Shown: positions 19,504-64,000, counted from the first letter of the stretch. The stretch: 64,000 bases of DNA from Vulcanimicrobiota bacterium (GCA_031082125.1 JAVHLM010000029.1:1478-65477), one strand, 5' to 3'. The notes: generated by a model not told the origin, from the letters alone. Translations and numbers: made by a program.

Positions 19504-19587
19504 AGAACACCTCGCTTTTCAGAATATCCCTAAAACCGTATCATACTCCCCTCACTCTGCTACCTCGCGAGGGGGAAAAAATTCCAT

Positions 19588-21066: not shown

Positions 21067-21343
21067 AACCCACCCTCTTCTCCATCTTCACCTCAGCGCG
21101 GCTCTCTCTTTCTATCCCGGAAAACCTCGAGGGCTTCTCCGGGAGGCTGAAGGGTCAGATTGCAAGATTTCCGCCTGTATAATGGGAAAACTCCTGGCAC
21201 AGCGAGGTCTGCTTTCAAGGAGAGATTCAACGGGAAAGGCCAAAGTCCTGTAAGGCAGTGGAGGGGTTTTATAAATATTCCTGGAATATAGGGAACAGGT
21301 CCGTCTACCCGGGACGCTCGGCGGCCTGGAAGAAAGGAGCGCG

Positions 21344-36729: not shown

Positions 36730-36730
36730 C

Positions 36731-37423: not shown

Positions 37424-37433
37424 TGAAGCCACC

Positions 37434-45276: not shown

Positions 45277-48200
45277 ATGAAGCAGAAATTCCGGCTCTTT
45301 GTCCAGAAGCATGAAAACGGCACCTATACCGTTACCTTGCCAGGCATTCACTACGTCCCGGTCCCCATCGATGATGCCGTGCAACCTGCCTCTTCAAGTC
45401 TTTCCTCCTACGGGCCCATACTCGAGGAAGTGAAAGACGACGTGCGTATTGCCCTGGAAAAATGGCTTGCGCGGGTTGATCCCTCACATCTGGCCATGCT
45501 CAGCAACCATCGGCCGGGAGAGACTCTCGAAAAGGTCGAGGTGGAGCTGCGCCCCTCTGACAGCAGGGGGAAAAAGCGCCACGACAGGGTAAAGCTGACA
45601 GTGAGCCTCATGGTGACACCCGAGGAGGGCTCGCAGCTCCTGGTAAGTGCTCCCAAGCTCGCCTCACCGCCTCTTTCATTCTACTGCTACTCGATGGCCG
45701 AGCTCCGTGAGGCGGCCACAAGGGAGATTGCCGCCTATTTCAGCAGCTTCACCCTGGAGGAGATCCTGCCCTACTGTTACCAGCGCCAGGAGTTCCTTGA
45801 CGAGATCGAGGTGGCTTTCACCCCGATGAAGCCCTTCCGGGAAAAGAAGGAGAAGGAACAGGACGAGGGCTGCTTCTGGGCCCTCAGGGGCGCCGGGATA
45901 AACCTGAGCGCGAGAACCCGGGAAAACCGCCTTCTGAAGGCTTATGGCCGGGAAAGAGAGGTAAACGAGCTTATGGCGGTCCTCTCGTCGGAAAGGAGCA
46001 GCTCGGTGCTCCTTGTCGGCGAGTCGGGCACGGGAAAAACAGCCGTGGCACATGAGGTGGTGCGGCGCATCACTGCTGAGCAGTGCCCCCCGGCCCTCCG
46101 GAAGAGGCAGGTGTGGCACACCAGTGCAGGCAGCCTTATTGCAGGCTGCAGCTATATCGGGGAATGGCAGGAAAAGGTGCAGAACATTGTTGAAGAGGTG
46201 AAAAAGAAACGCCATATCCTCCATATTGATGACATCGTGGGCCTTCTGGAGGCGGGGCGGTGGAGCAAGAGCGATGAGAACATAGGCCATTTCCTGAAAA
46301 ATTACCTTGCCGACGGGACAGTGGTGATCATCGGCGAGACCACGCCGGGCCGCCTCAGCATCGGGGAGCGCTACGATCCTTCCTTTTTCTCGCTCTTCAG
46401 GATCATCACCATGGCAGAGCCTGATGAAAATTCGACGCTCAGCATACTGGGAAACTATGCCGCTTCGCTGGAGAACGACTTCCGCGTGCGCATCAGGCCT
46501 TCAGCCTCCGAGGCAGCCCTGGAGCTCACCAGGCGCTTCCAGCCTTACCTCTCTCTCCCGGGAAAAGCCGTGGGGCTCCTTGAGCGTGTGGCCTCCGACG
46601 CGGGAAAAACGGGTGCAAGGGAGCGGCCTGAAATCACCAGGCAGTTCATTGTGAGCGCCTTTGCCCGGGAAACGGGGCTCCCCGAGTTTATTCTCTCCGA
46701 TCATCTCACTCTTGAGCCGAAAAGCATCGATAAGTTCTTTTCCGAGCAAATCAAGGGCCAGGGTCATGCCGTAGGCACCATTGTGGATCTTGTCACCGTC
46801 ATCAAGTCGGGCCTGAACGATCCCCAGAAGCCCATGGGGTGCCTCTTTTTCGTAGGGCCTACCGGCGTGGGAAAGACCGAGATGGCAAAGACTCTCGCGG
46901 AATACCTTTTCGGCAGCCGCGAGAGGCTTGTCCGCTTCGACATGAGCGAGTATGCAGAGCCATTCAACGTGGCAAAGCTCATAGGCTCCCCTCATGGCGA
47001 CGAGGAAGGCGAGCTCATAAGGCGCATCAGGCTTCAGCCTTTCTCTGTGGTGCTCCTGGATGAGTTCGAGAAAGCCCACGGGAGCATTTTTGACTGCATG
47101 CTCCAGGTGCTTGGTGAAGGGCGCCTTACCGATGCCAAGGGCCGCACGGCAGACTTCAGGAGCGCCATCATCATCATGACCTCGAACCTGGGAGCCACGG
47201 CTAAAGAACAGCGAAAGCCGGGGCTCCGCCGGGACAGCTCCATGCACTCCGTGGAGGAGCATTTCCGGGACCAGGTGGAGCACTTCTTCCGCCCCGAGTT
47301 TGTCAACAGGCTCGATGGCATCGTCGTGTTCCACCCTCTCGGCAGAGCCGCAATGGAGGAGGTTGCCTCCCGGGAGCTTGCAAAGCTTCTCGAGCGCGAG
47401 GGGATTACCAGGAGAAGCCTCCTTGTGGAGGTAGATCCCTCCATGATGGAGCTCCTCATCGAGAAGGGATTCAGCCCCCACTATGGCGCCAGGCCTCTCA
47501 AGCGGGAGATTGAGAGGTCCATCAACGTGCCTCTTGCCCATTACCTGGTATCGCACAGGATCTCGTCTCCGTACCTTATAGGAGTGTCCTGCGAAGACGG
47601 CCGGACGGTGATTCATGCCACGGCCCTCTCAGAAGCGCGGCAGGTGGTAAAGCAGGAAGAGGCTCCCCTGTCGCTGAGTGCCGCCACTGAGAGAAAAATG
47701 CAGATCTCGGAGCTTGTCGAAGGCTTTGCAGAGATCCGCCTGAGGCTTCACCGCTGGCTGCAGAGCGACAATGTGGAAAGAATAAGGATTGAATGGAAAC
47801 GGCTCCTCGCAGAGACAAGGAAAAAGGAGTTCCGCTCCGACGGCCGGGAGGGCATGAAAGCCTTCGAGAGGATATACCAGCTGGAGCGCCTCACCAAGCG
47901 CCTCGAGCAGCTCGCGGACCGCGCCTCCTACCTCGAGGAGTTTGCCACCCTCACGAAGCGCCAGCGCGACGCACGTTACGGCGCCGACCTGGCCCAGAAT
48001 TACACCGATCTCTGCCGTGACGCTGATTTCCTGGAGATCGAGCTCCTCTGCGCCCATCTTTCGGAGAGCGGCCGAGCCCTCATGCACCTTTCTGCCATCG
48101 GCCAGGCCGTCAGGGGCGAGCGCTCGGCCAGGGAGCGCGCCGAGTGGGTGGCGGCCCTGGCGAAGATGTACCTCTCCTGGGCGGGGCGGAAAGGATATGA

Positions 48201-48786
48201 GTCGGGTGTCATGGTGAGAACTGGCGAATACGTGCACTGGATAGAGGAAAAGGGCCTCAAGGTGAAGGCCCATATCCCTGACTTCAGGAAAGGCCCCCCC
48301 ATGGAGCCCTGCTGGACCAGGCTTTCCGCCGACTCGCTCCAGGGCCTTTTCAAGCGCATTGAAGAGCTTGAGGCATCGGAGCTTGGCATCCTTATTGAAG
48401 GCACCAATGTATACGGCTTCCTGAAGGGAGAGGCCGGCACCCACAAGCTGGTGCTGCGCGGCGAAGAGCGCGGCTCCGTTGCGCCTTTCAGGACCGTTGC
48501 AGCAGCCGTTGACAGCCTTGATGACAAAGACTCGCCTGCCGACTTGCTCAATGCCCGTGAAGCGCTGAAGGGGAAGCGCGGCGAAAAGAAAAAGGGGCAG
48601 GATGTGCCCGATATCATAAGGATTTACTCCCCCCTGGGGGATCGCTTTGTCCGCGATGTCCGCACCGGCGTGCGCACCACGCAGGTGAGCCAGGTTCTTG
48701 AAGGCTTCATTGACGAGTTCATCCTGGCCCACCTCAGGAGTCTCGAGGCCGGAGAAGCCTGGGATGTCGATGAGGATGCTCCTTAG
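45277..48786 (+). CDS. atypical Clp/Hsp100-like double-AAA+ ATPase (1169 aa) with novel N-terminal (about 200 aa) and C-terminal (about 450 aa) extensions
   Basis: D1: LLVGESGTGKTAVAHEV (Walker A) ...ILHIDDIVGLLEAG (non-canonical Walker B/sensor). D2: LFFVGPTGVGKTEMAKTLAEYLF...VLLDEFEKAHGSIFDCMLQVLGEGRLTDAKGRTADFRSAIIIMTSNLG (canonical ClpB D2). The C-terminal about 450 aa is coiled-coil rich with no recognised domain. Confidence 0.65.
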   Translation: MKQKFRLFVQKHENGTYTVTLPGIHYVPVPIDDAVQPASSSLSSYGPILEEVKDDVRIALEKWLARVDPSHLAMLSNHRPGETLEKVEVELRPSDSRGKKRHDRVKLTVSLMVTPEEGSQLLVSAPKLASPPLSFYCYSMAELREAATREIAAYFSSFTLEEILPYCYQRQEFLDEIEVAFTPMKPFREKKEKEQDEGCFWALRGAGINLSARTRENRLLKAYGREREVNELMAVLSSERSSSVLLVGESGTGKTAVAHEVVRRITAEQCPPALRKRQVWHTSAGSLIAGCSYIGEWQEKVQNIVEEVKKKRHILHIDDIVGLLEAGRWSKSDENIGHFLKNYLADGTVVIIGETTPGRLSIGERYDPSFFSLFRIITMAEPDENSTLSILGNYAASLENDFRVRIRPSASEAALELTRRFQPYLSLPGKAVGLLERVASDAGKTGARERPEITRQFIVSAFARETGLPEFILSDHLTLEPKSIDKFFSEQIKGQGHAVGTIVDLVTVIKSGLNDPQKPMGCLFFVGPTGVGKTEMAKTLAEYLFGSRERLVRFDMSEYAEPFNVAKLIGSPHGDEEGELIRRIRLQPFSVVLLDEFEKAHGSIFDCMLQVLGEGRLTDAKGRTADFRSAIIIMTSNLGATAKEQRKPGLRRDSSMHSVEEHFRDQVEHFFRPEFVNRLDGIVVFHPLGRAAMEEVASRELAKLLEREGITRRSLLVEVDPSMMELLIEKGFSPHYGARPLKREIERSINVPLAHYLVSHRISSPYLIGVSCEDGRTVIHATALSEARQVVKQEEAPLSLSAATERKMQISELVEGFAEIRLRLHRWLQSDNVERIRIEWKRLLAETRKKEFRSDGREGMKAFERIYQLERLTKRLEQLADRASYLEEFATLTKRQRDARYGADLAQNYTDLCRDADFLEIELLCAHLSESGRALMHLSAIGQAVRGERSARERAEWVAALAKMYLSWAGRKGYESGVMVRTGEYVHWIEEKGLKVKAHIPDFRKGPPMEPCWTRLSADSLQGLFKRIEELEASELGILIEGTNVYGFLKGEAGTHKLVLRGEERGSVAPFRTVAAAVDSLDDKDSPADLLNAREALKGKRGEKKKGQDVPDIIRIYSPLGDRFVRDVRTGVRTTQVSQVLEGFIDEFILAHLRSLEAGEAWDVDEDAP

Positions 48787-49553: not shown

Positions 49554-50041
49554 CGTCGCTCCTCCTTATTTCCGGCCGTAGGTTACGGTCCTGGGTACTT
49601 ATCATTTCTCCCTGCTGCGGGGCCTTTCCTTTGAAAGGCTGCAAAAAATATTACAAAATCGCAACAATTTGGCAATACCTGCCTGCTATAATAAGGATGA
49701 ACTGTGCGGGGAGCACAAGGCCAGCGACCAGGGGCTGGGGGCTGAAAGTGAAAGAGGGACAAATGACGTTCCCTTGGTCAGCCAGACCCTGATCACTGGC
49801 CTTTTCAATCTGCCTGCCTCCCTGAACCCCTCGACTCACCCTTAATTAATCTCTCCTCTCTTCTCTTGAACCTGCCAATCCATATATTCCAGAAGTCCAC
49901 AGGCGATATTTATCCCCCCCTGACCATGAAATACTCCCCTTCAAGAAGGGTTTTCCCCGGAGGTGGCGAAAAGATTCACCGCTTTGGGGAAATAAGAGAA
50001 AAGTATTTATTTTCCCCGGCATTTCTATTATAATAAAGAGA

Positions 50042-51754
50042 ATGAACATGAATGCACCCGGGCTGACTTTATCTGCTCACGAGGCGTCCAGGGTTTCTTC
50101 TGCGCGCGCTTTTCCCTATGTACAGGGCTCCCAGGCCGAGCTTTCTCCTCTTGGATGGTGGCACCGCGGCGACGCAGAGCTACGGAGGGGAGACGCCGCT
50201 CTGCGGGAAGCCCTGCTGAATGTGAGAAAGTCCTTTCTTCTCATTGCAGACGACGGGGGATTCTCAGTGACAAGGAAGGATCTAAGGGAATCATGCGCCC
50301 ATGGTGAAGATACCCTCGCCGTGGCGGCATATGTGCCTCCAAGCCACCCGGAACTGCTTGGAGATGCTGCGTTCATGGAGTTCCTCGGTATCCGCTATCC
50401 ATGCATTGCCGGCTCAATGGCCCATGGCATAAGCTCCGTTGAGATGGTTGAATCAATGGCTGCCGCGGGGATGCTGGGCTTTTTCGGTGCGGGCGGCGAG
50501 ACAGCGGCAAAGGTAGAGCAGGCCATAGACCGCCTCAGCGTTGCACCTGGCACCAGGCCATTCGGTTTCAACTTCATACACAGCCCCGGGGAGCCCGCCA
50601 TGGAAGAGGCCCTTGCAGACCTTTATCTCCGGCGCGGCATAAGGCTCATTGAGGCTTCGGCCTTCATGGACATCACGCCCGCCCTGGTGAGATACCGCGC
50701 AGCGGGACTGTCAGAAGGGCCTGACGGCTCCATAACAGTGGCAAACCGCATCATTGCAAAAGCCTCCCGGGCCGAGGTGGCCACGAGGTTTTTCTCGCCG
50801 CCTCCTCAGGCGGTGCTTGAAGAGCTTGTCTCATCGGGCCGCATCTCGGAAAAGCAGAAAGCCCTGGCAGCTGTGATCCCTTTGGCCGATGCCCTCACCG
50901 CCGAGGCTGATTCGGGTGGGCACACCGACAACAGGCCCCTCGTGACGCTCCTTCCCGCCATGTGCGCCCTCCGCGACGAGCTGCAGAAAAAATTCGGCTA
51001 CAGACAGAAGCTGCACGTGGGCGCAGCGGGAGGGATCTCCACTCCTGCTTCGGCTGCTGCCGCATTCACCATGGGAGCCGCATACATAATGACAGGCTCG
51101 GTGAACCAGTCCTGCATAGAATCCGGGACCTCCGAAGCCGTCCGGGACCTTCTCTCAAAGACAAGGCAGGCTGACATCACCATGGCCCCCTCGGCAGACA
51201 TGTTCGAGCTGGGGGTGAAAATACAGGCCATCAAGACAGGCACCATGTTTCCCATGAGGGCGGCAAAGCTTTACCAGCTCTACCAGACCTGCGCGAGCCT
51301 GGAGGAGATCCCGCCGAAAGAGCGGGAAACCATAGAAAAGAATTTCTTCCGGGCATCCTTTCAGGAAGTCTGGAATCAGACATGTGAGTACTTTCTCGAA
51401 CGGGACCCGGGCCAGATTGATCTCGCCGGGCAGAACGCCAGACACAAGATGGCGCTTCTCTTCAGGTACTATCTTGGACAGTCGGCACGGTGGGCAATCC
51501 TCGGTGAGCCTTCAAGGCAGCTGGACTACCAGATATGGTGCGGCCCCTCGATGGGAGCCTTCAATGAATGGGTGAAAGGCTCGCCGCTCGAGCATGTGAA
51601 GCGGCGCAAAGTTGCCCTTGTCGCCCTGAACCTGCTCCACGGAGCCGCTGTTGCCATGAGGCTTGCCCACCTGAGAAGCCAGGGTATCGACCTTTTCCAA
51701 GTGGGGAGCCCCAGGCCTCTTGAAGAAGAACAGCTTGCCAATTACCTGAGTTAA
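50042..51754 (+). CDS. pfaD: PfaD-family trans-acting enoyl reductase (FMN-dependent 2-nitropropane-dioxygenase-like) of a PUFA-synthase-type cluster
   Basis: 570 aa; ...IAGSMAHGISSVEMVESMAAAGMLGFFGAGG... and ...VGAAGGISTPASAAAAFTMGAAYIMTGSVNQ... are typical of the PfaD family; lies immediately upstream of the megasynthase genes. Confidence 0.85.
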   Translation: MNMNAPGLTLSAHEASRVSSARAFPYVQGSQAELSPLGWWHRGDAELRRGDAALREALLNVRKSFLLIADDGGFSVTRKDLRESCAHGEDTLAVAAYVPPSHPELLGDAAFMEFLGIRYPCIAGSMAHGISSVEMVESMAAAGMLGFFGAGGETAAKVEQAIDRLSVAPGTRPFGFNFIHSPGEPAMEEALADLYLRRGIRLIEASAFMDITPALVRYRAAGLSEGPDGSITVANRIIAKASRAEVATRFFSPPPQAVLEELVSSGRISEKQKALAAVIPLADALTAEADSGGHTDNRPLVTLLPAMCALRDELQKKFGYRQKLHVGAAGGISTPASAAAAFTMGAAYIMTGSVNQSCIESGTSEAVRDLLSKTRQADITMAPSADMFELGVKIQAIKTGTMFPMRAAKLYQLYQTCASLEEIPPKERETIEKNFFRASFQEVWNQTCEYFLERDPGQIDLAGQNARHKMALLFRYYLGQSARWAILGEPSRQLDYQIWCGPSMGAFNEWVKGSPLEHVKRRKVALVALNLLHGAAVAMRLAHLRSQGIDLFQVGSPRPLEEEQLANYLS

Positions 51755-51765
51755 AGGAGAATACC

Positions 51766-54700
51766 TTGAAACGCGAATCGACGCTTACCCCCGCCCCCAT
51801 CGCAATCATAGGCATCGGCTGCGTATTTCCCAAGGCGGAGGACCTCCAGGAATACTGGTCCACCATAAAAAACGGAATTGACGCCATCACCGATATTCCT
51901 CCCACGCACTGGAGCGTGAATGACTATTTTGACGAGAATCCCAGGGTCCCCGACATGACTTACGGGAAAAAGGGCGGGTTCATATCGCCCATAGACTTTG
52001 ATCCCATGGAATTCGGCATCACGCCCAATTCCCTCGAGGCGACGGACACCTCGCAACTGCTGGGCCTGGTGGTGGCAAAGAGAGCCCTCGAGGATGCCGG
52101 GTACGGCAACGGCAAAGAGTTCAACAGGGAGCGCACAAGCGTTATCCTGGGTGTTACGGGGACCCTGGAGCTTGTGGTCCCCCTGGGTGCAAGGCTGGGC
52201 CACCCCATCTGGAGAAGGGCTCTCAGAGACGAGGGAGCTGACAGCGATCTCACCGAGCGCGTGGTGAAAAGAATTGCCGATTCCTACGTGGAATGGCAGG
52301 AAAGCTCTTTCCCCGGGCTCCTGGGAAACGTGGTGGCAGGGAGAATTGCCAACTACTTCAACCTGGGGGGGACAAACTGCGCGGTGGATGCCGCCTGCGC
52401 AAGCTCCCTCTCGGCTCTTCACCTGGCGGGGCTTGAGCTCTCATCAGGGAGAAGTGATATGGTCCTCACCGGGGGCGTTGACACCTTCAATGACATCTTC
52501 ATGTTCATGTGCTTCAGCAAAACCCCGGCCCTCTCACCCACGGGCAACGCGCGGCCTTTTGACTCTTCCTGTGACGGAACAGTCCTCGGCGAGGGCATCG
52601 GGATGATAGTGCTCAAGCGTTTTGAAGATGCGAAGAGGGACGGCGACAGGGTCTACGCCGTCATAAGAAGCATGGGGACCTCAAGCGACGGCAAGGGCGC
52701 CGCGGTGTTCGCCCCCCAGGCCGGCGGGCAGATAAGGGCGATGAGGGAGGCATACCGCATCTCTGGAATAGAGCCCCGCACCGTGGAGCTCATGGAAGCC
52801 CACGGAACAGGCACGAAGGTAGGAGACCTCACAGAGTTCACTTCCATTAATGCTGTCTTCAACGAGGGCGGAAGCGCCGGCGCCTGGTGCGCCCTCGGTT
52901 CCGTGAAGTCACAGATTGGCCATACGAAAGCTGCCGCAGGCATCGCAGGAATCATCAAGGCCGCAATGTCCCTTCACCACAAGGTGCTGCCTCCCACGAT
53001 CAAAGTGAAGAAACCCTTTGATGAGCTGCTTGCCCAGGGGACGCCCTTCTACCTGAACACGCAGAAGAGGCCCTGGATAGGCAGCACCTCCCATCCCAGG
53101 AGGGCCGCCGTGAGCTCCTTCGGCTTCGGCGGGAGCAATTTCCACTGCGTGCTGGAAGAGCCATCACCGGTGAAGCTCTCCACAGACTGGGACGGCCGTG
53201 TGCAGATTGCCGCCCTGTCGGCTTCTAGCCCCGGCGGGCTCGAAGCCTCCCTCGATGACTGGAAAGGCGGAATCTCATGGAGAGAGCTCTCTGAGAAATC
53301 CGAGGCCACACGGAAGACCTTCGACTTGAAAGAGCCCTGCAGGCTTCTGATGGTCTTTGAAAGAGAGGGCGCAGAGCCCCACAAGGTCGTCTCGAGCGCC
53401 CTCGTGATGCTTGGAAAGCACCCTGAAAGGAAAGCGTGGAACACGCCCGAGGGAGCATTCTACGGAAGCGGAGCCCCTTCGGGGAGGCTGGCGATCCTCT
53501 TCCCAGGGCAGGGCGCTCAGTATACAGGCATGCTCAGGGACCTCGCCTCGCAGTTCCCTGAAATGCTCGCTGTCCTGAGAGATGCCCATGAATCATTTGC
53601 CTCCCTGGCTCCCGAAGAATTGGGGGCGGGCCTCGTAAATTACCTCTATCCCCACCCTGCCTTCAGCGAAGAGGAGAAGCAGAGGCAGGAGCGGGAGCTC
53701 CGCGATACCCGCGTGGCGCAGCCCGCCCTCGGTGCCGTAAGCTACGGAGCCTGGAAAGTCCTGGAGCACTTCGGCATAAAGCCGGAAGCACTGGGCGGCC
53801 ACAGCTACGGCGAGCTTGTCTCCCTCTGCGTGGCAGGCTCAATCACCCCGGAAGAGCTCTACCATCTCTCCTCTCTCAGGGGGAGCCTGATGGTCGAGGG
53901 GAAGGACGACCTGGGCTCAATGCTCGCCGTGCAGCTCGAGGCGGGGCTCCTCTCTGACATCATTGAGAAGGAGCGCCTTGACCTGGTCATTGCCAACCAC
54001 AATGCCCCCCAGCAGGCGGTGCTCTCTGGAGCCACCGCTGAAATAGAGAGGGCAGCCGCTGTCATCACTGCAATGGGCATAAGGAATACAAAGCTTACGG
54101 TCTCCGCAGCCTTTCACAGTCCCCTCGTGGCCGATGCCCAGGCTCCTTTTGCCGCGGGGCTCGACAAGGTGCCTTTCAGGTGCTGCTCCATCCCGGTCTA
54201 TTCCAACACGACGGCCTGTCTGTACCCGGATGATCCCGGAAAGACCAGGGCCCTTCTTGTCGGCCACCTGGCAAAGCCCGTGCGCTTTGTTGATGAGATC
54301 CTGGCCATGTATGACTCCGGCGTGCGGACCTTCCTTGAAGTGGGGCCCTGCGCGAGGATGACAGGCCTCGTCAAGGCCATACTCAATGGCAGGGGTGACT
54401 TCGAGGCCTTTTCCATCGACGGGTCATCAGGGAAAAGGCACGGTACAGGCGACCTGGCCAGAGCCCTTGCTGCTCTTGCCGCAGGAGGGCATGCGGTGGA
54501 CCTTACCCTCTGGAACCCTCTCCAGAGAAACATCACAACCGTTGATCAGCAGAAGAAACGCATGACAATACCCCTCTGTGGGGCCAACTACGTGAATCCC
54601 GCCAAGAAGGCTGCAATTAGTGAGGAAGGAGCACCGGAGAGGAACAATGGCACAGAGGCCCCAAGGACTGCGGCGCCGAAGCCGGAGAGCAGCGAAAAGG

Positions 54701-57700
54701 CTTTCTCTGCCGACAGCCCCCGGAAACAGTCCATGGTGGAGCTGCTCAGGCTTACCCAGCAGAACATAAAAGCTCTCCAGCAGATACAGGAGCAGACGGC
54801 CCTCATGCACCAGCAGTTCCTCCAGAACCAGGACAAGGCCCTTCACACTTTCCAGCAGATAGCGGGGCAGCAGCAGCACCTGCTGCTGGCAGCCCTCGGC
54901 AGGGAAGCTTCAGCCGCACCGCTCCCGCTGCCGGAAATCAGAGAAGCAGCTCCGGTCCTGATGAAAGAGCCACCGCCTGCAGCATCTCAGGAGGCGGCTC
55001 CCGCGGGAGACTTCGGCAAGCTCCTGCTTGAAGTCATCTCCGAGAAAACAGGGTACCCCGTGGAAATGCTTGAGCCGGGCATGAGCCTTGATGCCGACCT
55101 GGGCATAGACTCCATCAAGCGAGTCGAGATATTCTCGGCCCTCAAGGAACGCTATCCCGCGATGCCCGGCCTGAGATCCGACGAGATGGCCCGGATGAAA
55201 ACACCGGGAGACATCATCAAGCACATGAGCACGAGCGGGAATCCCGGCACCCTCCGCCCTTTCGATAATCCCCGGGGCGGGGGTATTGCGGAAAGCCTGC
55301 TTTCCATCATTGCGGAAAAAACAGGCTACCCTGCCGAGATGCTGGACCTGGATATGAGCCTTGACAGCGATCTGGGCATAGACTCCATCAAGCGAGTCGA
55401 GATATTCTCGGCCCTCAGGGAAGCCCATCCAGACCTTCCGGCCATCAAGTCCGACGAGATGGCTGCATTGAAGAGCCTCAGGGAGATCGTGCTGTTCCTT
55501 GACGCCAGGAGCGTCACCTTTTCGCCGCCTCCCGTGCAGGAAAAGCCGGGAGAGCTCCTTGCTGCCCTTACCGACCTTATTGCGGAAAAAACAGGCTACC
55601 CTGCCGAGATGCTCGAGCCCTCAATGAGCCTCGAGGGAGACCTGGGAATAGACTCCATCAAGCGAGTCGAGATATTCTCGGCCCTCAGGGAGCGCTTCCC
55701 CTCAATGCCTGCCGTGAAATCCGACATGATGGCCCTGATGAAAACCCTGAGCGACATTGTGGCTTTCCTGGAAGGTGAAGCCCCCCGGGACGAAAAGCCG
55801 CTGCAAGGACCTGCCACGGAGATGCCCATGCCAGAGCCCCGCGAAGAAGGAGAAAAGCAGCTCAAGCGGCTTGTGCTCATCACGCAGATGCTCAACGGGG
55901 TCTCCGGAAGGGAAAAGCTCGCCTTGCAGGCCGGATCCGAAATCTGGGTCACCGATGACGGGTCGCCTTTTGCCTCGAGCCTCGCTGAGATTCTTGAGGC
56001 CATGGGATACAGGCCGCACGTCGAAAAAATTGAAACCTTGCTCCGCCAGGGTGCGCCCCCCTCTCTCGGAGGCCTCCTTATAATAGCCCCATCGGGCGCT
56101 ACAGAAAGCAATTTCCTCATGAAGGCCTTCAAGGTCCTTAAGGAAGCCTCTCCCGCTCTCAAGGAGAGCGCGCGGGAGAGGGGTTCATTCTTTGCCACCG
56201 TGTCCAGAATGGACGGCTGCTTCGGCCTGGGCGGCATGGACCTTAAGGGTGAGCCGCTCTCGGGAGGCCTGGCGGGCCTTACAAAGACTGTGCGCCATGA
56301 ATGGCCCCAGATCTGCTGCAAGGCTTTTGACGTGCCGGCGCACCTTCATTCCTCCAGGGAAGTTGCTTTGGAGCTCATCGAGGAGCTTTTCCTGAAGGGC
56401 CCGATTGAGGTGGGCATCTCTCCGAAGGGCCGCTGCACCCTGGAGCTTTCTCTCACAGGCCGCAACGGCACGGGCTGTGTCCCGCCCTTCTCCCGCGATG
56501 ACGTGGTTATCGTCACAGGCGGCGCGCGGGGCGTCACGGCTGAATGCGCCGTGCAGCTCATAAACCGCCTCTCCCATGATGAGAAACCAGCACTGGTGCT
56601 CCTGGGAAGAAGTCCCGAGCCGAAGCCTGAGCCTGAATGGCTCGGCGGGCTCACCGGCGATGCCGAGATCAAGAGAGCCCTCATGGTCCACAGTGGAGGA
56701 AAGGCCACGCCCGCCTCTATCCGCGAGGAGTACGGCAGGATCGAGGCGCAGAGGGAGATTGCCTCGACGCTCTCCCGGATAAGGGAAGCCGGCGGCAGGG
56801 TCTTCTACCGCTCAGTTGACATCAGGAATCCTGGGGAGCTCAGGGCAGCCGTGGAAGATATCCGCGCCACTGCAGGCCCCATAAGGGGGCTGGTCCATGG
56901 CGCCGGCGTCATTGCTGACAGGCTCATCGAGGACAAGACCGACGAGGAGTTTGAGCGCGTATACTCCACCAAGGTCGAAGGCCTCAGGAATCTCCTCGCC
57001 CTTCTCAGTGACGACGAGCTGAAGATCCTCGTGCTCTTCAGCTCATTCACCGGGAGGTTCGGCAGGGTCGGCCAGGCTGATTACGCCGTTGCCAACGAGG
57101 TGCTCAACAAGCTGGCGCTTTGGCAGTCAAGGCTGCGGCCGCGATGCCGCGTCGTGGCCCTCAACTGGGGTCCCTGGGACGGCGGCATGGTGACGACTTC
57201 CCTGAAGAAAATCTTTGAAAAAGAGGGGGTAGGCCTTATCGCCCTCGAGCAGGGCACGGAGATCTTCATCAGGGAGCTCTGTTCCTCACCTGATGCCCCC
57301 GTGGAAGTAGTGATACTGGGAAGCGACACCGGAACGGGCTGCGCTCCGGCCGAGTACACCACGGCTTTCGAGAGCCTCCTGACCATTGAAGCCTTTCCTT
57401 TCCTGAATTCCCATATTCTTGACGGGCAGGCCGTGCTCCCCGTGGCAATGATGCTCGAATGGCTCTCCCATGGCGCCCTCGTGGCAAATCCGGGTCTCAC
57501 CTTTTACGGGGCCGACAATCTTCGAGTGCTCAAAGGCCTCAGGATCATAAAATCGGAGTCCAGGACCATCAGGGTCGTCACGGGAAAAGCGAAGACCGCA
57601 GGAGATTTCTTCACTGTCACCGCAGAACTCCAGAGCGATGAAAAGGGCACCCCGCCGGTAATCCATGCCCGCGGTGAGATAGTGCTTGCGGCGAATATCC

Positions 57701-58215
57701 CAAAAGGTGAGAGAAGCCTTACCGGCACCGATCTTCCGGCCTATCCCTTCGACAGGGAGGCTCTTTACAGGGAGTTCCTTTTCCATGGAAGCGATTTCCA
57801 GGGCATAGAGAAAGTCGAGGGCTCGTCGGCGCAGGGAATCAGGGCTACGGCCCGCACCGCGCCGAAGCCTTCAGCATGGATAAAAGAGCCCCTCAGGAAC
57901 AGGTGGATCACCGATCCCCTTGTCATTGACTGCAGCTTCCAGATGATGATTCTGTGGAGCTTCCAGAAATACCAGTCAGGGTCACTGCCCTGCTATGCCG
58001 GCAGCTACCGCCAGTTCAGGTCCTTTCCCAGGGGGGTCGTGAGCATTGTCATAGGCATCACCGGTGGAAATGAGCACAAAGCCCTTGCCACCATAGAATT
58101 CGTCGATCAGAAAGGAATGCTCATCGCAAGGATGAAAGGCTACGAGTGCACCATTCTCCCCTCGCTGAAGAAAGCCTTCGAAAACAACAGGCTCACCCAG
58201 GAAGCCATGCGCTAA
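51766..58215 (+). CDS. pfaA: PUFA-synthase-type multidomain PKS subunit: KS - AT - 3x ACP - KR - PKS-type DH (PfaA/Pfa2-like)
   Basis: KS active site VDAACASSLSAL; AT GHSYGELV; three ACP motifs LGIDSIKRVEIFSAL; KR Rossmann VTGGARGVTAECA; DH ...HILDGQAVLPVAMMLEWL. Confidence 0.9.
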   Translation: MKRESTLTPAPIAIIGIGCVFPKAEDLQEYWSTIKNGIDAITDIPPTHWSVNDYFDENPRVPDMTYGKKGGFISPIDFDPMEFGITPNSLEATDTSQLLGLVVAKRALEDAGYGNGKEFNRERTSVILGVTGTLELVVPLGARLGHPIWRRALRDEGADSDLTERVVKRIADSYVEWQESSFPGLLGNVVAGRIANYFNLGGTNCAVDAACASSLSALHLAGLELSSGRSDMVLTGGVDTFNDIFMFMCFSKTPALSPTGNARPFDSSCDGTVLGEGIGMIVLKRFEDAKRDGDRVYAVIRSMGTSSDGKGAAVFAPQAGGQIRAMREAYRISGIEPRTVELMEAHGTGTKVGDLTEFTSINAVFNEGGSAGAWCALGSVKSQIGHTKAAAGIAGIIKAAMSLHHKVLPPTIKVKKPFDELLAQGTPFYLNTQKRPWIGSTSHPRRAAVSSFGFGGSNFHCVLEEPSPVKLSTDWDGRVQIAALSASSPGGLEASLDDWKGGISWRELSEKSEATRKTFDLKEPCRLLMVFEREGAEPHKVVSSALVMLGKHPERKAWNTPEGAFYGSGAPSGRLAILFPGQGAQYTGMLRDLASQFPEMLAVLRDAHESFASLAPEELGAGLVNYLYPHPAFSEEEKQRQERELRDTRVAQPALGAVSYGAWKVLEHFGIKPEALGGHSYGELVSLCVAGSITPEELYHLSSLRGSLMVEGKDDLGSMLAVQLEAGLLSDIIEKERLDLVIANHNAPQQAVLSGATAEIERAAAVITAMGIRNTKLTVSAAFHSPLVADAQAPFAAGLDKVPFRCCSIPVYSNTTACLYPDDPGKTRALLVGHLAKPVRFVDEILAMYDSGVRTFLEVGPCARMTGLVKAILNGRGDFEAFSIDGSSGKRHGTGDLARALAALAAGGHAVDLTLWNPLQRNITTVDQQKKRMTIPLCGANYVNPAKKAAISEEGAPERNNGTEAPRTAAPKPESSEKAFSADSPRKQSMVELLRLTQQNIKALQQIQEQTALMHQQFLQNQDKALHTFQQIAGQQQHLLLAALGREASAAPLPLPEIREAAPVLMKEPPPAASQEAAPAGDFGKLLLEVISEKTGYPVEMLEPGMSLDADLGIDSIKRVEIFSALKERYPAMPGLRSDEMARMKTPGDIIKHMSTSGNPGTLRPFDNPRGGGIAESLLSIIAEKTGYPAEMLDLDMSLDSDLGIDSIKRVEIFSALREAHPDLPAIKSDEMAALKSLREIVLFLDARSVTFSPPPVQEKPGELLAALTDLIAEKTGYPAEMLEPSMSLEGDLGIDSIKRVEIFSALRERFPSMPAVKSDMMALMKTLSDIVAFLEGEAPRDEKPLQGPATEMPMPEPREEGEKQLKRLVLITQMLNGVSGREKLALQAGSEIWVTDDGSPFASSLAEILEAMGYRPHVEKIETLLRQGAPPSLGGLLIIAPSGATESNFLMKAFKVLKEASPALKESARERGSFFATVSRMDGCFGLGGMDLKGEPLSGGLAGLTKTVRHEWPQICCKAFDVPAHLHSSREVALELIEELFLKGPIEVGISPKGRCTLELSLTGRNGTGCVPPFSRDDVVIVTGGARGVTAECAVQLINRLSHDEKPALVLLGRSPEPKPEPEWLGGLTGDAEIKRALMVHSGGKATPASIREEYGRIEAQREIASTLSRIREAGGRVFYRSVDIRNPGELRAAVEDIRATAGPIRGLVHGAGVIADRLIEDKTDEEFERVYSTKVEGLRNLLALLSDDELKILVLFSSFTGRFGRVGQADYAVANEVLNKLALWQSRLRPRCRVVALNWGPWDGGMVTTSLKKIFEKEGVGLIALEQGTEIFIRELCSSPDAPVEVVILGSDTGTGCAPAEYTTAFESLLTIEAFPFLNSHILDGQAVLPVAMMLEWLSHGALVANPGLTFYGADNLRVLKGLRIIKSESRTIRVVTGKAKTAGDFFTVTAELQSDEKGTPPVIHARGEIVLAANIPKGERSLTGTDLPAYPFDREALYREFLFHGSDFQGIEKVEGSSAQGIRATARTAPKPSAWIKEPLRNRWITDPLVIDCSFQMMILWSFQKYQSGSLPCYAGSYRQFRSFPRGVVSIVIGITGGNEHKALATIEFVDQKGMLIARMKGYECTILPSLKKAFENNRLTQEAMR
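55010..55770 (+). repeat. three tandem ACP-domain repeats (period about 270-275 nt) with long stretches of 100% nucleotide identity
   Basis: The 41-mer atagactccatcaagcgagtcgagatattctcggccctca occurs identically at about 55105, 55378 and 55648. The 35-mer attgcggaaaaaacaggctaccctgccgagatgct occurs at about 55310 and 55579. Confidence 0.8.
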
Positions 58216-58229
58216 AGGAAGCTATCCCC

Positions 58230-61200
58230 ATGGAATTCACCACCCCCATTGCCATCGTGGGAGCAGGCGGACTGTTCCCCGGAGCGCCTTCGCTTGAGTC
58301 TTTCTGGACCCTCATCAGGGAGGGAAAAAGCGCCTCGCGTGAAGTACCGCCGGGGCGCTGGATTCTGCAGCCCTCAGAGGGTTATTCCCCCGGTGCCATA
58401 AGGCCTGACAGGACTTATTCCTCAAAGGGATGCTTCCTTGATGACTTCTCCATCTCTGAAAAGCTCGACTTCACAGGGCTTGCCGTTGATCAGGGTACTC
58501 TCTCCAGGCTTGATCCCCTCTTTCACATTGCCCTCATGGCGGCGGTGGAGGCCTTCAGGAGCGCCTCCACTGGATCGGTGCACCGCTCCAGGACAGGCGT
58601 CATAATAGGGAATATCGCCCTCCCTACAGAGACCTCGTCGGCCATCTCAAGGGAGATCCTGGAGCCTGCCATCGAGGAGCTCGTCACCGGGGCCAGGGGC
58701 AGAGCTCCCCTCACCTTCACCGATCCCCTCAATGCGTGGGTGAACGGCCTCCCTGCCGGTTTCATCGCCCACGCCCTGGGCCTTGGCGGGGGAAGCTTCA
58801 CCATTGACGCGGCCTGCGCGTCATCGCTTTACGCCGTGAAACTGGCCTGCGACAGGCTGCTCTCCGGGAAAGCCGATATGATGCTCTCGGGAGGCATCTG
58901 CCGCCCCGACTGTCTTTACACGGCAATGGGCTTCTCGCAGCTCTCGGCCCTCTCGCCTGACGGCCTGTGCGCCCCTTTCGATGTGAAAGCCAATGGCCTC
59001 GTGATAGGAGAAGGTGCGGGCATCCTTGTCCTCAAGCGCCTTGAAGATGCCCTCGCCCAAGGTGATGACATTCTTGCAGTGATTAAAGGCATCGGCCTTT
59101 CAAACGACATTGAAGGCTCTCTCCTCGCGCCTGACAGCGAAGGGCAGCTCCGTTCCATGGAGGCAGCCTACCGCCAGGCCCGGTGGCTTCCTTCCGACGT
59201 AGACCTCCTGGAATGCCATGCTACAGGGACTCCCGTCGGTGATGCCGTGGAGTACCAGAGCCTCAGGAAGCTCTGGGAGAGGAACGGATCATCCTTCCGG
59301 GAGGGGCAGTGCGTCATCGGCTCGGTGAAGTCCAATGTGGGCCATCTCCTCACGGGCGCCGGCGCTGCAGGCCTTATCAAGGTCCTCCTGGCTCTCAGGG
59401 AGAAAGTGCTGCCGCCTACAGCCAACTACACCGTCTCCCCGCCTTCCTTTGACCTCCCCGGAAGCCCTTTCAGAGTTCTCAGGAAAAGCGAGCCATGGCC
59501 TGAGAGAGCCGGAGGAGCCCCTCGGCGTGCAGCCGTGAGCGCTTTCGGCTTCGGGGGCATCAATGCCCATGTGCTCATCGAGGAATGGCAGGGTACGGGG
59601 AAAAAGATCTCTGCCGTGAAGGCCTCCTCCCTGAAGGAGGGCAGGCCCGTGGCGATCGTGGGAATTGACGCCCGCTTCGGCCCCTATGACACCCTTGAGA
59701 AATTCAGGCATGCCCTCTTCGACAGTACCGCAAGAGAGGAGCCCGGGGCAAAAAAGGGCTGGTACGGCGTGCCCTCTTCGTCATGGTTTCACAGTGAGAT
59801 GGGAGAATCAGAGCCCGAGGGCTTTGGAATTGACGACATCAAGGTCCTCCCCGGCCAGTTCAGGATTCCTCCCGTGGAGATAAGCGAGATGCTCCCCCAG
59901 CAGCTCCTCATGCTGCTCGTGGCAGCAGGGGCCTTGAAGGACGCCGCGACAGCCCCTGCAGATCATGACACTGCGGGCGTCTTCATAGGGATATCCTTTG
60001 ATTTCAGCACCACCACATTCAGCGTGCGCTGGGACATGGCGAACAAGGCTCCCCTGTGGCTCCCCCCAGGAGTCCCCGGCAGTGAAAAGGACCTCCAGGA
60101 CTTCGCAGGAGCGCTCCGTGACACAGTGGGCCCTCCCCTGAACGCCAACAGGACCATGGGGGCCCTGGGGAGCATCGTGGCGAGCAGGATAGCAAGGGAA
60201 TTCCGCTTCGGCGGCCCCTCTTTCACCGTCTCGTCTGAGGAGTGCTCAGGGCTTGCCGCCCTTGAGGTGGCGATCACGAAGCTCTCGTCGGGAGAAATTG
60301 ACTGCGCCCTGGCCGGCGCCGTCGATTTTGCCGGCGATATCCGGGCCCTGATCGCAAGGCGCCGGGCCGGGGAAAAGCCATGGCCTCTTTTCGGCGAAGG
60401 GGCGGCGGCAGTGGTGCTCAAGAGGCTCGAAGACGCCGAGCGCGACGGCGACCGGATATATGCCGTGATAAGGGCCACAGGGCTTGCAGGGGGAGGGAAG
60501 CCCGGCTGCGATGGCCCCGGGAAAGACACCGTGCTGCGGGCCCTCAGGAGAGCCTGCAGCGAAGAGAGGCACCCCCCGGGATCAATGGATTTTGCAGGTA
60601 TCATCAGCGCTGAATCTGGAGCGGCATGGGCCGGAGAGCTCTTTTCTGAAAGCAGGTGGAATGAACCTGTCGCAATTGGTGAAGTTGCTGAATGGACCGG
60701 CGATGCGGGGGCTGCTACGGCATTCGCATCGGTGGTGAAGCTCTGCCTGATGCTCTCCCATCACCTGATCCCCCCTTCGCAGGACGTGAGAGCCCTGGTG
60801 GAAGGCGCTCCGGAATGGCCTTTCTGCCCCCCGGGGAAGGCGCAGCACTGGCTCAGGAACAGGGCTGAGGGCCCCCGGAAGGGCTCGGTGACCTGTTCCT
60901 CAGTAGACGGCACCTGCGCCCATGTGATCCTGGAAGAATATGAGCCGCAAGCAGGGAGAGCCCTGCCGGCCCCTCCCGTCACTGTGCAGGAAGCCCTTTT
61001 CGCCCTCAGGGCCGGCACTGATCACGAGCTCCTCGCAGAGCTGGACCGCATGGAAAGCTTCCTGGAAGGGAAAGGAGGGCAGCCACTGGCCTGGAGCTCT
61101 TCACAATGGCTGTCGCGGCAAATGGAGGAGAAAGGAGGGAGTCACAGGCTGGCCATCATCGCGAGAGATCATGACGAGGCCGCCCGTCTCATCGGGCAGG

Positions 61201-64000
61201 CGCGGCAGGCCATCTCCCGGAAGCCTGGCGTTCCGCTCAGGATGAGGCCCGCGGGAAACGAAAGAGAAGGTGATGCCCTTTTCTATGCTCCCCTATCCGA
61301 AAAGCCCCGGGGAAAGACCGCATACGTGTTCCCAGGCTCTGGGAACCATTATCCCGGCATGGGAAGGGAGCTTACCGCCGCCTGGTCTTTTATTGCCGAG
61401 AAGCAGGACAGGGAAAACCTCTCCCTCAGGAGCCAGGTCATGCCGCACCTGTTCTGGAGCCTTGAATCCCTAGACGGAATATCCGGCAATCACAGGGCTC
61501 TCATGGAAGGGCAGGTTGCCATGGGGACTCTCATGGCGGATCTCCTGGGGCACCTCGGCATCAGGCCTGAAGCTGCCATCGGCTACAGCCTCGGCGAGAT
61601 GGCAGGCCTCTTTGCCCTGAGGGCCTGGCGCGCAAGGGACGAGATGCACAGGCGGATGGAGGAATCCCGCCTCTTCACCGATGAGCTTGCCGGTCCCTGT
61701 AATGCTGCCAGGGCAGCCTGGGGCCTCAATGCTTCCGAAGAGGTCCGCTGGGCCATCGGTGTCATCGATGCCCCGGCCGTCGTGGTCAAAGAAGCCCTCA
61801 GGGGAAGAAGCCGCGTGTACCTCCTCATCATAAACACTCAGTCAGACTGCGTTATCGGCGGTGACGAGCGTGAAGTTTCAATACTCGTCAGAGACCTTGG
61901 CTGCTCCTACCTCCCGGTAAGCGGCGTCACTACTGTACACTGCGAGGTAGTAAAGCCCGTGGCGGACATTTACCGGGACTTTCACCTCTTCCCTGTCACA
62001 GCGCCCGATGGCATCAGCTTTTACAGCACCGGGTGGGGTAAGTGCTACGACATGACGATGGAGAGGGCTGCCGATGCCATACTGGCCCAGGCTCTTGACA
62101 CTGTCGATTTCCCCCGCGTCATAGAAGCCGCCTACCATGATGGCGTGCGCACCTTCATAGAGATAGGTCCCGGCCCCTCCTGCACAAGGATGATTGGAAG
62201 GATCCTTGAAGGCAGGGAGCATACCGCCCTTGCAGCCTGCAGGGAGGGGCATTCTGAGGTCTCTTCGGTTCTGAGGCTTGCGGCGCGCCTCTTTACTGAA
62301 GGCCTGGATATCAACCTTGAGAAGCTTTTTTCCCCCCTTGAGTCATTGAAGGTGCCGGAAAGCGCCCCTTCAGCGCCCAGGGCAATCAGGCTTGATACGG
62401 GAGGCGGCCCTTTCAAAACCCCGGATCTGCCCCGCCCCCTCTCCGAAAAGAGTGCGCCGGAACCTTCCCGCAGCACGGTAAAGAGAGACACCCCTCCCAA
62501 TCCCGAGCCGGACCCGGTCATGAGCATGTTTTATGCCATGGAGCAGGCCAAGCTCCAGGCTCATGAAAGCTACCTCACCTTCACCAGAAATCTGACGGAT
62601 GCCATGGCGCAGCAGATGACACTCCAGATGGCGCTCCTTGAGGAATGCGGCGGGGAGCTTGCCGGCCTGGAAGATATCCATGGCCTTCTGGACAGTCCCG
62701 CCCCCTCGAAAGCCTGTCCCGCCGGAGCTGCTCTCAAGGTTACTGAGCTTTTGCCAAAAGCAATGCCCGATACTCTTAAAGCAGTTTCACCATTGCCTCA
62801 GGTCCTGCCTGCCGCGCCGGCGGCGCCCGGGAAGAGGCCTTTCATGGACAGGACTGCATGCATGGAATTTGCCGTGGGAAGCATCGCCAAGGTTCTCGGC
62901 CCTTCTTATCGCCAGGTGGACAGCCACCCCACGAGGGTCCGCCTCCCCGATGAGCCCCTCATGCTCGTGGATCGCATTATCGCCGTTGAAGGAGAAAGCC
63001 AGTCCCTTAAAAGCGGCCGTGTCATCACCGAGCATGACATTCTTCCAGGGGCCTGGTACCTCGACGGGGGACGTATTCCCACATGCATAGCCGTTGAGGC
63101 CGGCCAGGCCGACCTTTTCCTTTCAGGCTACCTGGGAATCGATTCCATCACCAGGGGACTCGCCGTGTACCGCCTCCTTGATGCCGTCGTCACCTTCCAC
63201 GGCCCCCTCCCGGGACCAGGCGAAGTGATTCATTACGATATCTCCATCGACAGGTTCTTCACCCAGGGTGACACCTGGCTCTTCAGGTTCAGGTTTGACA
63301 GCACGGTGGGAGGCAGGCCCCTCCTCACCATGCGGGAGGGCTGCGCCGGCTTCTTCACCAGGGAGGAGCTCGAGGCCGGGAAGGGGATTGTCCATACCTC
63401 CCTTGACACGAGGCCCCTGGAGGGAGCAGTCCCGCCCGGATGGTCATATCCCGTGCCCATGGGTTACGAGGCATACAGTGATGCCCAGGTTGAGGCTCTC
63501 CGCAAAGGGGATCTCGCCGGGGCCTTCGGCCCTCGCTTTGAAGGCCTCCCGGTGAAAAAACCCCTTACTATTCCCGGTGGAAAGCTCATGAGGCTCGTGG
63601 ACCGGGTGCAGCACCTCGATCCCCGCGGGGGAAGGTTCTCCCTCGGCATCATCCGTGCCGAAGCTGACATTCACCCCGACGACTGGTTCCTCACGTGCCA
63701 TTTCTCCGATGATAATGTCATGCCGGGGACCCTCATGTACGAGTGCTGCATGCACACATTCCGGATTTTCCTGCTGCGCATGGGATGGATAGCCGAGGAA
63801 GGCCAGGCCGCATGGGAACCTGTCCCCGGCGTGGCAAGCGGCCTCAAGTGCCGCGGGCAGGTCATCGAGAGCACAAGAAAGGCCTGCTACGAGGTTTCCA
63901 TCAAGGAGATGGGCTTCCGCCCCGAGCCCTATGCCATAGCTGACGCGCTCATGTATGCCGACGGCAAGCCTGTGGTGGAGATAAGCAATATGTCCATGAG
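58230..64000 (+). CDS. pfaC: PUFA-synthase-type subunit KS - CLF(KS-like) - AT - FabA-like DH x2 (PfaC/Pfa3-like); 3'-partial, continues beyond window
   Basis: KS VDAACASSLYAVKLACDRL; second KS-like domain; AT IGYSLGEMAGLFAL; two hot-dog domains with the FabA signature LTCHFSDDNVMPGTLM. There is no stop codon before 64000. Confidence 0.85.
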   Translation, partial: MEFTTPIAIVGAGGLFPGAPSLESFWTLIREGKSASREVPPGRWILQPSEGYSPGAIRPDRTYSSKGCFLDDFSISEKLDFTGLAVDQGTLSRLDPLFHIALMAAVEAFRSASTGSVHRSRTGVIIGNIALPTETSSAISREILEPAIEELVTGARGRAPLTFTDPLNAWVNGLPAGFIAHALGLGGGSFTIDAACASSLYAVKLACDRLLSGKADMMLSGGICRPDCLYTAMGFSQLSALSPDGLCAPFDVKANGLVIGEGAGILVLKRLEDALAQGDDILAVIKGIGLSNDIEGSLLAPDSEGQLRSMEAAYRQARWLPSDVDLLECHATGTPVGDAVEYQSLRKLWERNGSSFREGQCVIGSVKSNVGHLLTGAGAAGLIKVLLALREKVLPPTANYTVSPPSFDLPGSPFRVLRKSEPWPERAGGAPRRAAVSAFGFGGINAHVLIEEWQGTGKKISAVKASSLKEGRPVAIVGIDARFGPYDTLEKFRHALFDSTAREEPGAKKGWYGVPSSSWFHSEMGESEPEGFGIDDIKVLPGQFRIPPVEISEMLPQQLLMLLVAAGALKDAATAPADHDTAGVFIGISFDFSTTTFSVRWDMANKAPLWLPPGVPGSEKDLQDFAGALRDTVGPPLNANRTMGALGSIVASRIAREFRFGGPSFTVSSEECSGLAALEVAITKLSSGEIDCALAGAVDFAGDIRALIARRRAGEKPWPLFGEGAAAVVLKRLEDAERDGDRIYAVIRATGLAGGGKPGCDGPGKDTVLRALRRACSEERHPPGSMDFAGIISAESGAAWAGELFSESRWNEPVAIGEVAEWTGDAGAATAFASVVKLCLMLSHHLIPPSQDVRALVEGAPEWPFCPPGKAQHWLRNRAEGPRKGSVTCSSVDGTCAHVILEEYEPQAGRALPAPPVTVQEALFALRAGTDHELLAELDRMESFLEGKGGQPLAWSSSQWLSRQMEEKGGSHRLAIIARDHDEAARLIGQARQAISRKPGVPLRMRPAGNEREGDALFYAPLSEKPRGKTAYVFPGSGNHYPGMGRELTAAWSFIAEKQDRENLSLRSQVMPHLFWSLESLDGISGNHRALMEGQVAMGTLMADLLGHLGIRPEAAIGYSLGEMAGLFALRAWRARDEMHRRMEESRLFTDELAGPCNAARAAWGLNASEEVRWAIGVIDAPAVVVKEALRGRSRVYLLIINTQSDCVIGGDEREVSILVRDLGCSYLPVSGVTTVHCEVVKPVADIYRDFHLFPVTAPDGISFYSTGWGKCYDMTMERAADAILAQALDTVDFPRVIEAAYHDGVRTFIEIGPGPSCTRMIGRILEGREHTALAACREGHSEVSSVLRLAARLFTEGLDINLEKLFSPLESLKVPESAPSAPRAIRLDTGGGPFKTPDLPRPLSEKSAPEPSRSTVKRDTPPNPEPDPVMSMFYAMEQAKLQAHESYLTFTRNLTDAMAQQMTLQMALLEECGGELAGLEDIHGLLDSPAPSKACPAGAALKVTELLPKAMPDTLKAVSPLPQVLPAAPAAPGKRPFMDRTACMEFAVGSIAKVLGPSYRQVDSHPTRVRLPDEPLMLVDRIIAVEGESQSLKSGRVITEHDILPGAWYLDGGRIPTCIAVEAGQADLFLSGYLGIDSITRGLAVYRLLDAVVTFHGPLPGPGEVIHYDISIDRFFTQGDTWLFRFRFDSTVGGRPLLTMREGCAGFFTREELEAGKGIVHTSLDTRPLEGAVPPGWSYPVPMGYEAYSDAQVEALRKGDLAGAFGPRFEGLPVKKPLTIPGGKLMRLVDRVQHLDPRGGRFSLGIIRAEADIHPDDWFLTCHFSDDNVMPGTLMYECCMHTFRIFLLRMGWIAEEGQAAWEPVPGVASGLKCRGQVIESTRKACYEVSIKEMGFRPEPYAIADALMYADGKPVVEISNMSM

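Follow-up and report, generated by a model that had tools for sequence, protein, structure and literature searches.

A divergent Pfa-like secondary lipid synthase cluster, very probably of Type I, in an Eremiobacterota genome

Organization of the pfa cluster and its genomic setting

The stretch of DNA analyzed here, 64,000 nucleotides in length and hereafter the window, ends in a cluster of three intact, co-directional ORFs on the plus strand, which span 50042-51754, 51766-58215 and 58230 onward past the window end. The ORF calls thus bear out the coordinates of the initial annotation. The successive genes are separated by gaps of 11 and 14 nt, and the ribosome-binding sequences AAGGAG and AAGGAAG precede the two downstream genes; these short gaps, taken together with the good Shine-Dalgarno sequences, suggest that the three pfa genes form a single operon. 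No recognizable RNA family and no convincing promoter were detected in the 488-nt spacer upstream of the pfaD-like gene. The genes and the domains that they encode are as follows:

50042-51754 (+): pfaD-like trans-acting enoyl reductase, 570 aa (TIGR02814; Pfam NMO and FabD_helical_ins; PDB matches)
50348-51661 (+): conserved PfaD core, residues 103-540, within the pfaD-like gene
51766-58215 (+): pfaA-like multidomain synthase, KS-AT-ACP-ACP-ACP-KR-DH, 2149 aa, TTG start (TIGR02813, Pfam)
51796-53007 (+): KS domain of PfaA, Cys211/His346/His386 (PF00109/PF02801; catalytic triad mapped)
53497-54387 (+): malonyl-type acyltransferase domain, GHSYG, Ser680 (PF00698, 109 bits; motif)
55006-55779 (+): three tandem ACP domains, Ser1116, Ser1207 and Ser1297 in LGIDSIKRVE (PF00550, three stretches; motif)
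56506-57180 (+): ketoreductase domain, TGGARGV Rossmann motif at residue 1584 (PF08659, 124.8 bits; motif)
57352-58167 (+): PKS-type dehydratase domain, HILDGQAVLP, His1883 (PF21089 and PF14765; motif)
58230-64000 (+): pfaBC fusion, KS-CLF-AT-(pseudoDH-DH), truncated at position 64000, with 1923 of the 2318 codons inside the window (MDQ7826075.1)
58242-59429 (+): active KS of PfaBC, Cys196/His330/His372 (Pfam; triad)
59637-60959 (+): chain-length-factor domain with the KS fold, boundaries approximate (second PF00109 stretch; mapping onto the KS)
61323-62303 (+): PfaB-like acyltransferase domain, GYSLG, Ser1120 (PF00698, 41.8 bits, cutoff 32.7; motif)
62943-63317 (+): pseudo-DH, the first of two degenerate hot-dog folds, ahead of the FabA-type DH (PF07977, weak at 21.5 bits)
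63573-63983 (+): first FabA-type dehydratase/isomerase, CHFSDDNVMPG, His1824 (PF07977, 111.6 bits; motif)

At 0.58-0.62, the G+C content of 50001-64000 slightly exceeds that found elsewhere in the window (mostly 0.54-0.59), but so small a difference is no argument for recent horizontal transfer of the cluster. The 50 kb upstream of the cluster comprise ordinary chromosomal genes. Among these, a gene at 45277-48786 (+), about 1.3 kb upstream of the cluster and separated from it by a divergently oriented EcsC-like gene, codes for a 1169-aa ClpB-like protein (MDQ7826071.1), an unusual fusion that combines two AAA+ modules and a ClpB D2-small domain with a peptide-chain-release-factor domain (PCRF) at its C terminus. 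A run of pyrimidine-biosynthesis genes at 34106-39062 (-) includes fused genes, namely one for a 542-aa protein in which PyrI regulatory domains are attached to an aspartate carbamoyltransferase catalytic domain, and one for a 572-aa protein joining dihydroorotate dehydrogenase to an FAD-binding domain; genes for OMP decarboxylase and a phosphoribosyltransferase make up the remainder. The region 11462-19503 (-) encodes a bacterial alpha-2-macroglobulin (1893 aa) followed directly by a PBP1C-type penicillin-binding protein, and these two form a classic paired arrangement. Three separate ankyrin-repeat proteins are also encoded in the 64 kb, at 6804-7907 (-), 29633-30277 (-) and 38995-40398 (+).

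Domain architecture and conservation of active sites

The product of the first gene scores 601 bits against the TIGR02814 pfaD_fam model (cutoff 449) as opposed to 42 bits against the FabK model, and its best solved homologues are the PfaD chains 6lkc (539 bits) and 4yx6 (524 bits), with FabK at 35 bits. Both sets of scores place the reductase in the PfaD family rather than with FabK. Its start is uncertain: the NCBI-annotated form differs from the 570-aa form, and an alternative ATG is present at 50048.

The second product, which is identical to MDQ7826074.1 (the NCBI annotation likewise uses the TTG start), scores 1512 bits against the TIGR02813 PfaA model (cutoff 1010). Pfam searches recovered its KS at residues 11-414, AT at 578-874, KR at 1581-1805 and PS-DH at 1863-2134, in addition to three PP-binding domains bearing DSI serines, in agreement with the initial count of only three ACPs. 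Pairwise identity among these ACPs in the alignment is 56-61%, and a TRF search of the region detected no tandem repeat at the DNA level.

The third gene starts at ATG 58230, and its product is 100% identical to MDQ7826075.1 (P0001), a 2318-aa protein from a 'Candidatus Eremiobacteraeota bacterium' MAG; the gene had correctly been described as cut by the window end. In pairwise mapping onto the active KS, the second KS-like domain has Glu671, Ile792 and Asp825 in place of the Cys/His/His triad, and these replacements identify it as a classic, catalytically dead CLF. The best PDB match of PfaBC is 6riw, a 1014-aa chain named 'ORF10', whose alignment covers query residues 7-714 and spans both KS-like domains. 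The PF00698 match and the GYSLG motif corroborate the fusion of an AT into this protein, and this PfaB-like AT is probably a loading or off-loading domain. TIGR02816 pfaB_fam scores 86.8 bits on the third product, under its whole-protein cutoff of 144.3, as would be expected of a PfaB-like AT that is a fused domain.

The C-terminal 885 residues of PfaBC contain four hot-dog folds, with two strong FabA matches (His1824 and His2208) displaying HF..D.V.PG motifs. The 395 residues beyond position 64000 contribute a second pseudo-hot-dog and the second strong FabA domain (His2208), and nothing more. Hence, the DH2 portion attributed to this gene is valid for the full-length protein, which has two FabA-type DHs, and only the His1824 domain lies within the window. 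The suggestion that an AGPAT or thioesterase domain might follow past the window end did not survive inspection of full-length MDQ7826075.1, in which neither AGPAT (PF01553) nor a thioesterase domain was found.

On the whole, curated HMMs, Pfam searches and active-site inspection confirm the order ER, KS-AT-ACPn-KR-DH, KS-CLF-AT-DH2 proposed in the initial annotation, with each of the KS, AT, ACP, KR, DH and ER assignments recovered. The domain set is complete and the catalytic residues are intact across pfaD, pfaA and pfaBC. The curated models scoring above their cut-offs, together with the active sites, uphold the classification as a Pfa-type secondary lipid synthase.

Relationship to known Pfa systems

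The cluster very probably belongs to the Type I (Geobacter/Desulfuromonas/Gemmata-type) class of Pfa-like secondary lipid synthases. This type is defined by the pfaBC fusion and was described from several deltaproteobacterial genera and Gemmata (Shulse & Allen 2011, PMC3098273), its hosts being Geobacter bemidjiensis, G. uraniireducens, Desulfuromonas acetoxidans, Pelobacter propionicus and Gemmata obscuriglobus (PMC3098273). The window shares with it the gene order of pfaD at the 5' end, then pfaA and a fused pfaBC, the architectures KS-AT-ACPn-KR-DH and KS-CLF-AT-DH2, and the lack of AGPAT. It differs in coming from another phylum than the hosts named (an Eremiobacterota MAG), in that its PfaBC is about 58% or less identical to the recovered relatives (61% or less in genome scans), and in that the immediate oleABCD-pfaE linkage is absent or displaced in its three closest relatives.

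The 120 best homologues of PfaBC have the same Pfam content, with the named ones at 47-55% identity, and include Geobacter, Geomonas, Geotalea, Trichloromonadaceae and Desulfuromonadales, as well as Planctomycetes and others. The nearest named relatives, from Geobacter, Geomonas, Geotalea and Desulfuromonadales, are 49-52% identical and are without PF01553. A scan of GTDB species-representative genomes yielded at least 579 confirmed relatives distributed over many phyla, indicating that the synthase family is very common; among the matches listed in the GTDB genome and JGI metagenome scans, identity to the relatives was 61% or less. The cluster adds a divergent Eremiobacterota representative to a known, widespread kind, and implies no new architecture or mechanism.

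Two other known systems invite comparison. The myxobacterial Pfa1-Pfa2-Pfa3 systems of Aetherobacter, Minicystis and Sorangium also have the ER first and a Pfa2 of the form KS-AT-ACPn-KR-DH, and their Pfa3 likewise opens with KS-CLF-AT-DH-DH (PMC6731297). However, the C terminus of myxobacterial Pfa3 is formed by a 1-acylglycerol-3-phosphate acyltransferase (AGPAT) domain (PMC6731297), whereas PfaBC of the window stops after its second FabA-type DH, which excludes the myxobacterial subtype. The resemblance to this type that had been drawn earlier thus holds for the ER-first order and the KS-CLF-AT-DH-DH series, but it fails at the AGPAT, and the Geobacter-type Type I systems are the better match.

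The marine pfaABCD(E) systems of Shewanella, Moritella and Photobacterium share both the set of catalytic domains and the chemistry, and the ER of the window reaches 524-539 bits against the two solved PfaD chains. Their genes are ordered pfaA-B-C-D with a separate pfaB, the initial annotation gives them 5-9 ACPs, and they chiefly make EPA or DHA, which is found in phospholipids. In contrast, the window has its AT fused in the third gene, its ER first and three ACPs; with no stand-alone pfaB, no A-B-C-D order and fewer than five ACPs, the difference from the marine layout that had been pointed out initially is substantiated.

Gene neighborhoods and linkage to ole genes in related loci

The context of related clusters is exemplified by a locus from Desulfuromonadaceae (L005), in which the genes run pfaD-pfaA-pfaBC-oleA-oleB-oleC-oleD-PPTase, the ole products being a thiolase-like OleA, an alpha/beta-hydrolase OleB, an AMP-ligase OleC and a 3beta-HSD-like OleD. 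The Ole and PPTase proteins of this locus were used as tblastn probes on 161 related loci, 124 of which had at least 3 kb of DNA after pfaBC. Same-strand ole genes follow pfaBC in 113 of these 124 loci (91%), and in the related loci a median of 29 nt separates pfaBC from oleA. A PPTase was also seen in 48 loci, its position in the relatives being after oleD, a place that for the cluster studied here would fall past the window end. In a protein search seeded with OleA from another related locus (L154), Desulfuromonadales sequences sharing at least 76% identity crowded the list of matches. The gene order of L005 parallels that of G. bemidjiensis, which has pfaD-A-B/C-oleA-B-C-D-pfaE in tandem and makes C31:9 (Yoshida et al. 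2016, PMC4882568). The ole linkage across the family fits a synthase that provides the polyunsaturated acyl chain from which the C31:9 polyolefin is made.

The order ER-PfaA-PfaBC was observed in 59 of the 79 relatives with at least 9 kb of upstream DNA, and ACP numbers in relatives run from 2 to 6, so that both the ER-first order and the three ACPs of the window are norms of the family. A second gene order is seen in the other 20 of the 79 loci, which have neither a PfaD nor a PfaA gene within 9-10 kb upstream of pfaBC (L007, L010, L022, L030, L032, L037, L039, L040, L042, L044, L050, L051, L062, L064, L069, L075, L111, L116, L123 and L124); in several of them pfaBC is nonetheless followed directly by ole genes.

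In the window itself, no ole gene was found in the 50 kb upstream of the cluster, and no Sfp/PfaE-type PPTase was recovered, there being no PF01648 among the scanned ORFs and no tblastn match with the L005 PPTase. Genes for Ole proteins may also sit unlinked elsewhere in a genome (PMC3098273).

In a neighbor-joining tree of 112 PfaBC proteins, drawn from related loci only and with no characterized references of other types, the window protein groups with those of L001, L162 and L163 (58% identity), of which L001 is a Vulcanimicrobiota MAG locus. Among these three closest relatives L001 alone has oleABC(D), 6 kb further downstream, and no ole genes were found within 10 kb downstream of pfaBC in L162 and L163. 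The next neighbors in the tree are L004, L066, L123, L124, L161 and L078; only L078 has ole genes in the available downstream DNA, none having been found in that available for the other five. The next-best homologue, P0003, has oleA and oleB immediately downstream. The window thus sits in the minority of the family whose ole link is loose.

In L001, L162 and L163 the usual place of oleA after pfaBC is occupied by two genes for serine hydrolases of the beta-lactamase fold (PF00144), at 17241-21526, 17276-21540 and 17510-21782, respectively. L001 and L162 each have two such hydrolases of about 705-723 aa, and L163 has a 380-aa and a 719-aa PF00144 gene with a 317-aa unannotated ORF between them. 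Three other members of that PF00144 family sit in unrelated housekeeping contexts, and the pair was accordingly set aside as a pfa accessory, probably reflecting synteny within the lineage rather than a proven accessory function. With the L001 PF00144 protein as query, the best 120 matches included none from the source of the window, and the copy of L163 itself was absent from them too. The 322-aa ORFs that follow pfaBC in L004 and L066 were likewise ruled out as a shared accessory, as they are not homologous.

Proposed product and alternative explanations

The best explanation of the above observations as a whole, to which we would assign a probability of about 0.6, is that a Type I synthase makes a polyunsaturated acyl chain which OleABCD convert into a polyolefin. 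The cluster would then encode an iterative type I FAS/PKS that builds this chain without oxygen. By analogy with homologous Pfa synthases, a PPTase encoded elsewhere would activate the three ACPs, the AT of PfaA would load malonyl units, and the chain would be extended iteratively by both KS domains, that of PfaBC acting together with the dead CLF. The KR and the PKS-type DH would process the beta-carbon, the FabA-type DH domains would dehydrate and isomerize so as to retain cis double bonds, and the stand-alone PfaD reductase would saturate selected cycles. Release, as judged from characterized Pfa synthases, may be effected by the PfaB-like AT or by direct capture of the chain from the ACPs by OleA, and the latter is supported for Shewanella, where OleA is able to draw acyl chains straight off the ACPs of the Pfa synthase (PMC6463001). 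The context of the family would further suggest that a medium-chain polyunsaturated acyl-ACP (16:4n-3-like) passes to OleA and that OleABCD yield the C31:9 polyolefin hentriacontanonaene, as in Geobacter bemidjiensis and Shewanella. Indeed, the Shewanella Pfa synthase also feeds OleABCD to C31:9 (PMC6463001), and the hentriacontanonaene of G. bemidjiensis led Shulse & Allen to suggest that Type I synthases supply precursors for olefin synthesis (PMC3098273). A literature search found no experimentally determined direct product of any Type I synthase. For the genome of the window itself, a role in supplying olefin precursors would, judging from the family context, have roughly even odds.

A possible but less probable reading is that of a stand-alone PUFA synthase, with free or phospholipid long-chain products (EPA, DHA, ARA-like) or shorter PUFAs being released by the AT and no olefin pathway being involved. 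The downstream regions of L162 and L163, devoid of ole genes over 10 kb, and those of several neighboring members of the clade are consistent with it, as are the intact GYSLG serine of the PfaB-like AT and the remark of Shulse & Allen that the product of pfa homologues may remain a stand-alone one (PMC3098273). However, PfaBC has no AGPAT domain for placing the chain into phospholipid, 91% of the wider family is ole-linked, L001 of the same small clade has its oleABC(D) 6 kb downstream, and ole genes can be unlinked from pfa (PMC3098273). A related and unlikely proposal is that a small Type I sub-clade centered on Eremiobacterota/Vulcanimicrobiota has lost direct oleABCD coupling and either makes a stand-alone polyunsaturated lipid or employs the PF00144 hydrolases in releasing or transferring the chain. 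The beta-lactamase fold of the PF00144 hydrolases is shared by LovD-type acyltransferases.

It is very unlikely that the product is some other secondary lipid, such as the heterocyst-glycolipid-like, alkylresorcinol-like or other non-PUFA chains that the initial annotation had allowed for. The product is not readable from sequence and other types of Pfa-like cluster do make such lipids (PMC3098273), but Hgl-type clusters are without the FabA-type DH (PMC3098273) that is intact here, the genes next to the cluster in the window include no type III PKS, glycosyltransferase or reductase partner, and the best homologues are all Type I-like. The chance that these are housekeeping type II fatty-acid genes (FabF/FabK-like), or a decayed non-functional remnant, is practically negligible. 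Distant family resemblance, seen in the 42 bits of FabK and 186 bits of FabF, is all that favors it; the PfaD and PfaA curated models pass their cut-offs with far higher scores, and the solved PfaD structures outscore FabK by 539 to 35 bits, which rules out housekeeping type II FAS. Decay is excluded by the undamaged ORFs of 570, 2149 and 2318 codons, in which all catalytic residues are kept. The preferred reading is a Type I synthase for which a C31:9-type polyolefin formed through OleABCD is the likeliest end product.

Biological implications

The cluster extends a well-described and widespread anaerobic pathway for polyunsaturated lipids and polyolefins to Eremiobacterota, a phylum of which only a few members have been cultured; a full-text literature search found no paper tying Eremiobacterota to PUFA synthases. 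Were the proposal of a sub-clade without direct ole coupling to prove true, it would amount to a new way of releasing the Pfa product in this largely uncultured phylum. If expressed, the cluster would give its host polyunsaturated lipids or hydrocarbons of the C31:9 type; such compounds have been associated with adaptation to cold, and an antioxidant role has been proposed for them without direct evidence (PMC4882568). The divergent sequences of its proteins could also serve as points of comparison for the control of chain length and double bonds in this family of synthases.
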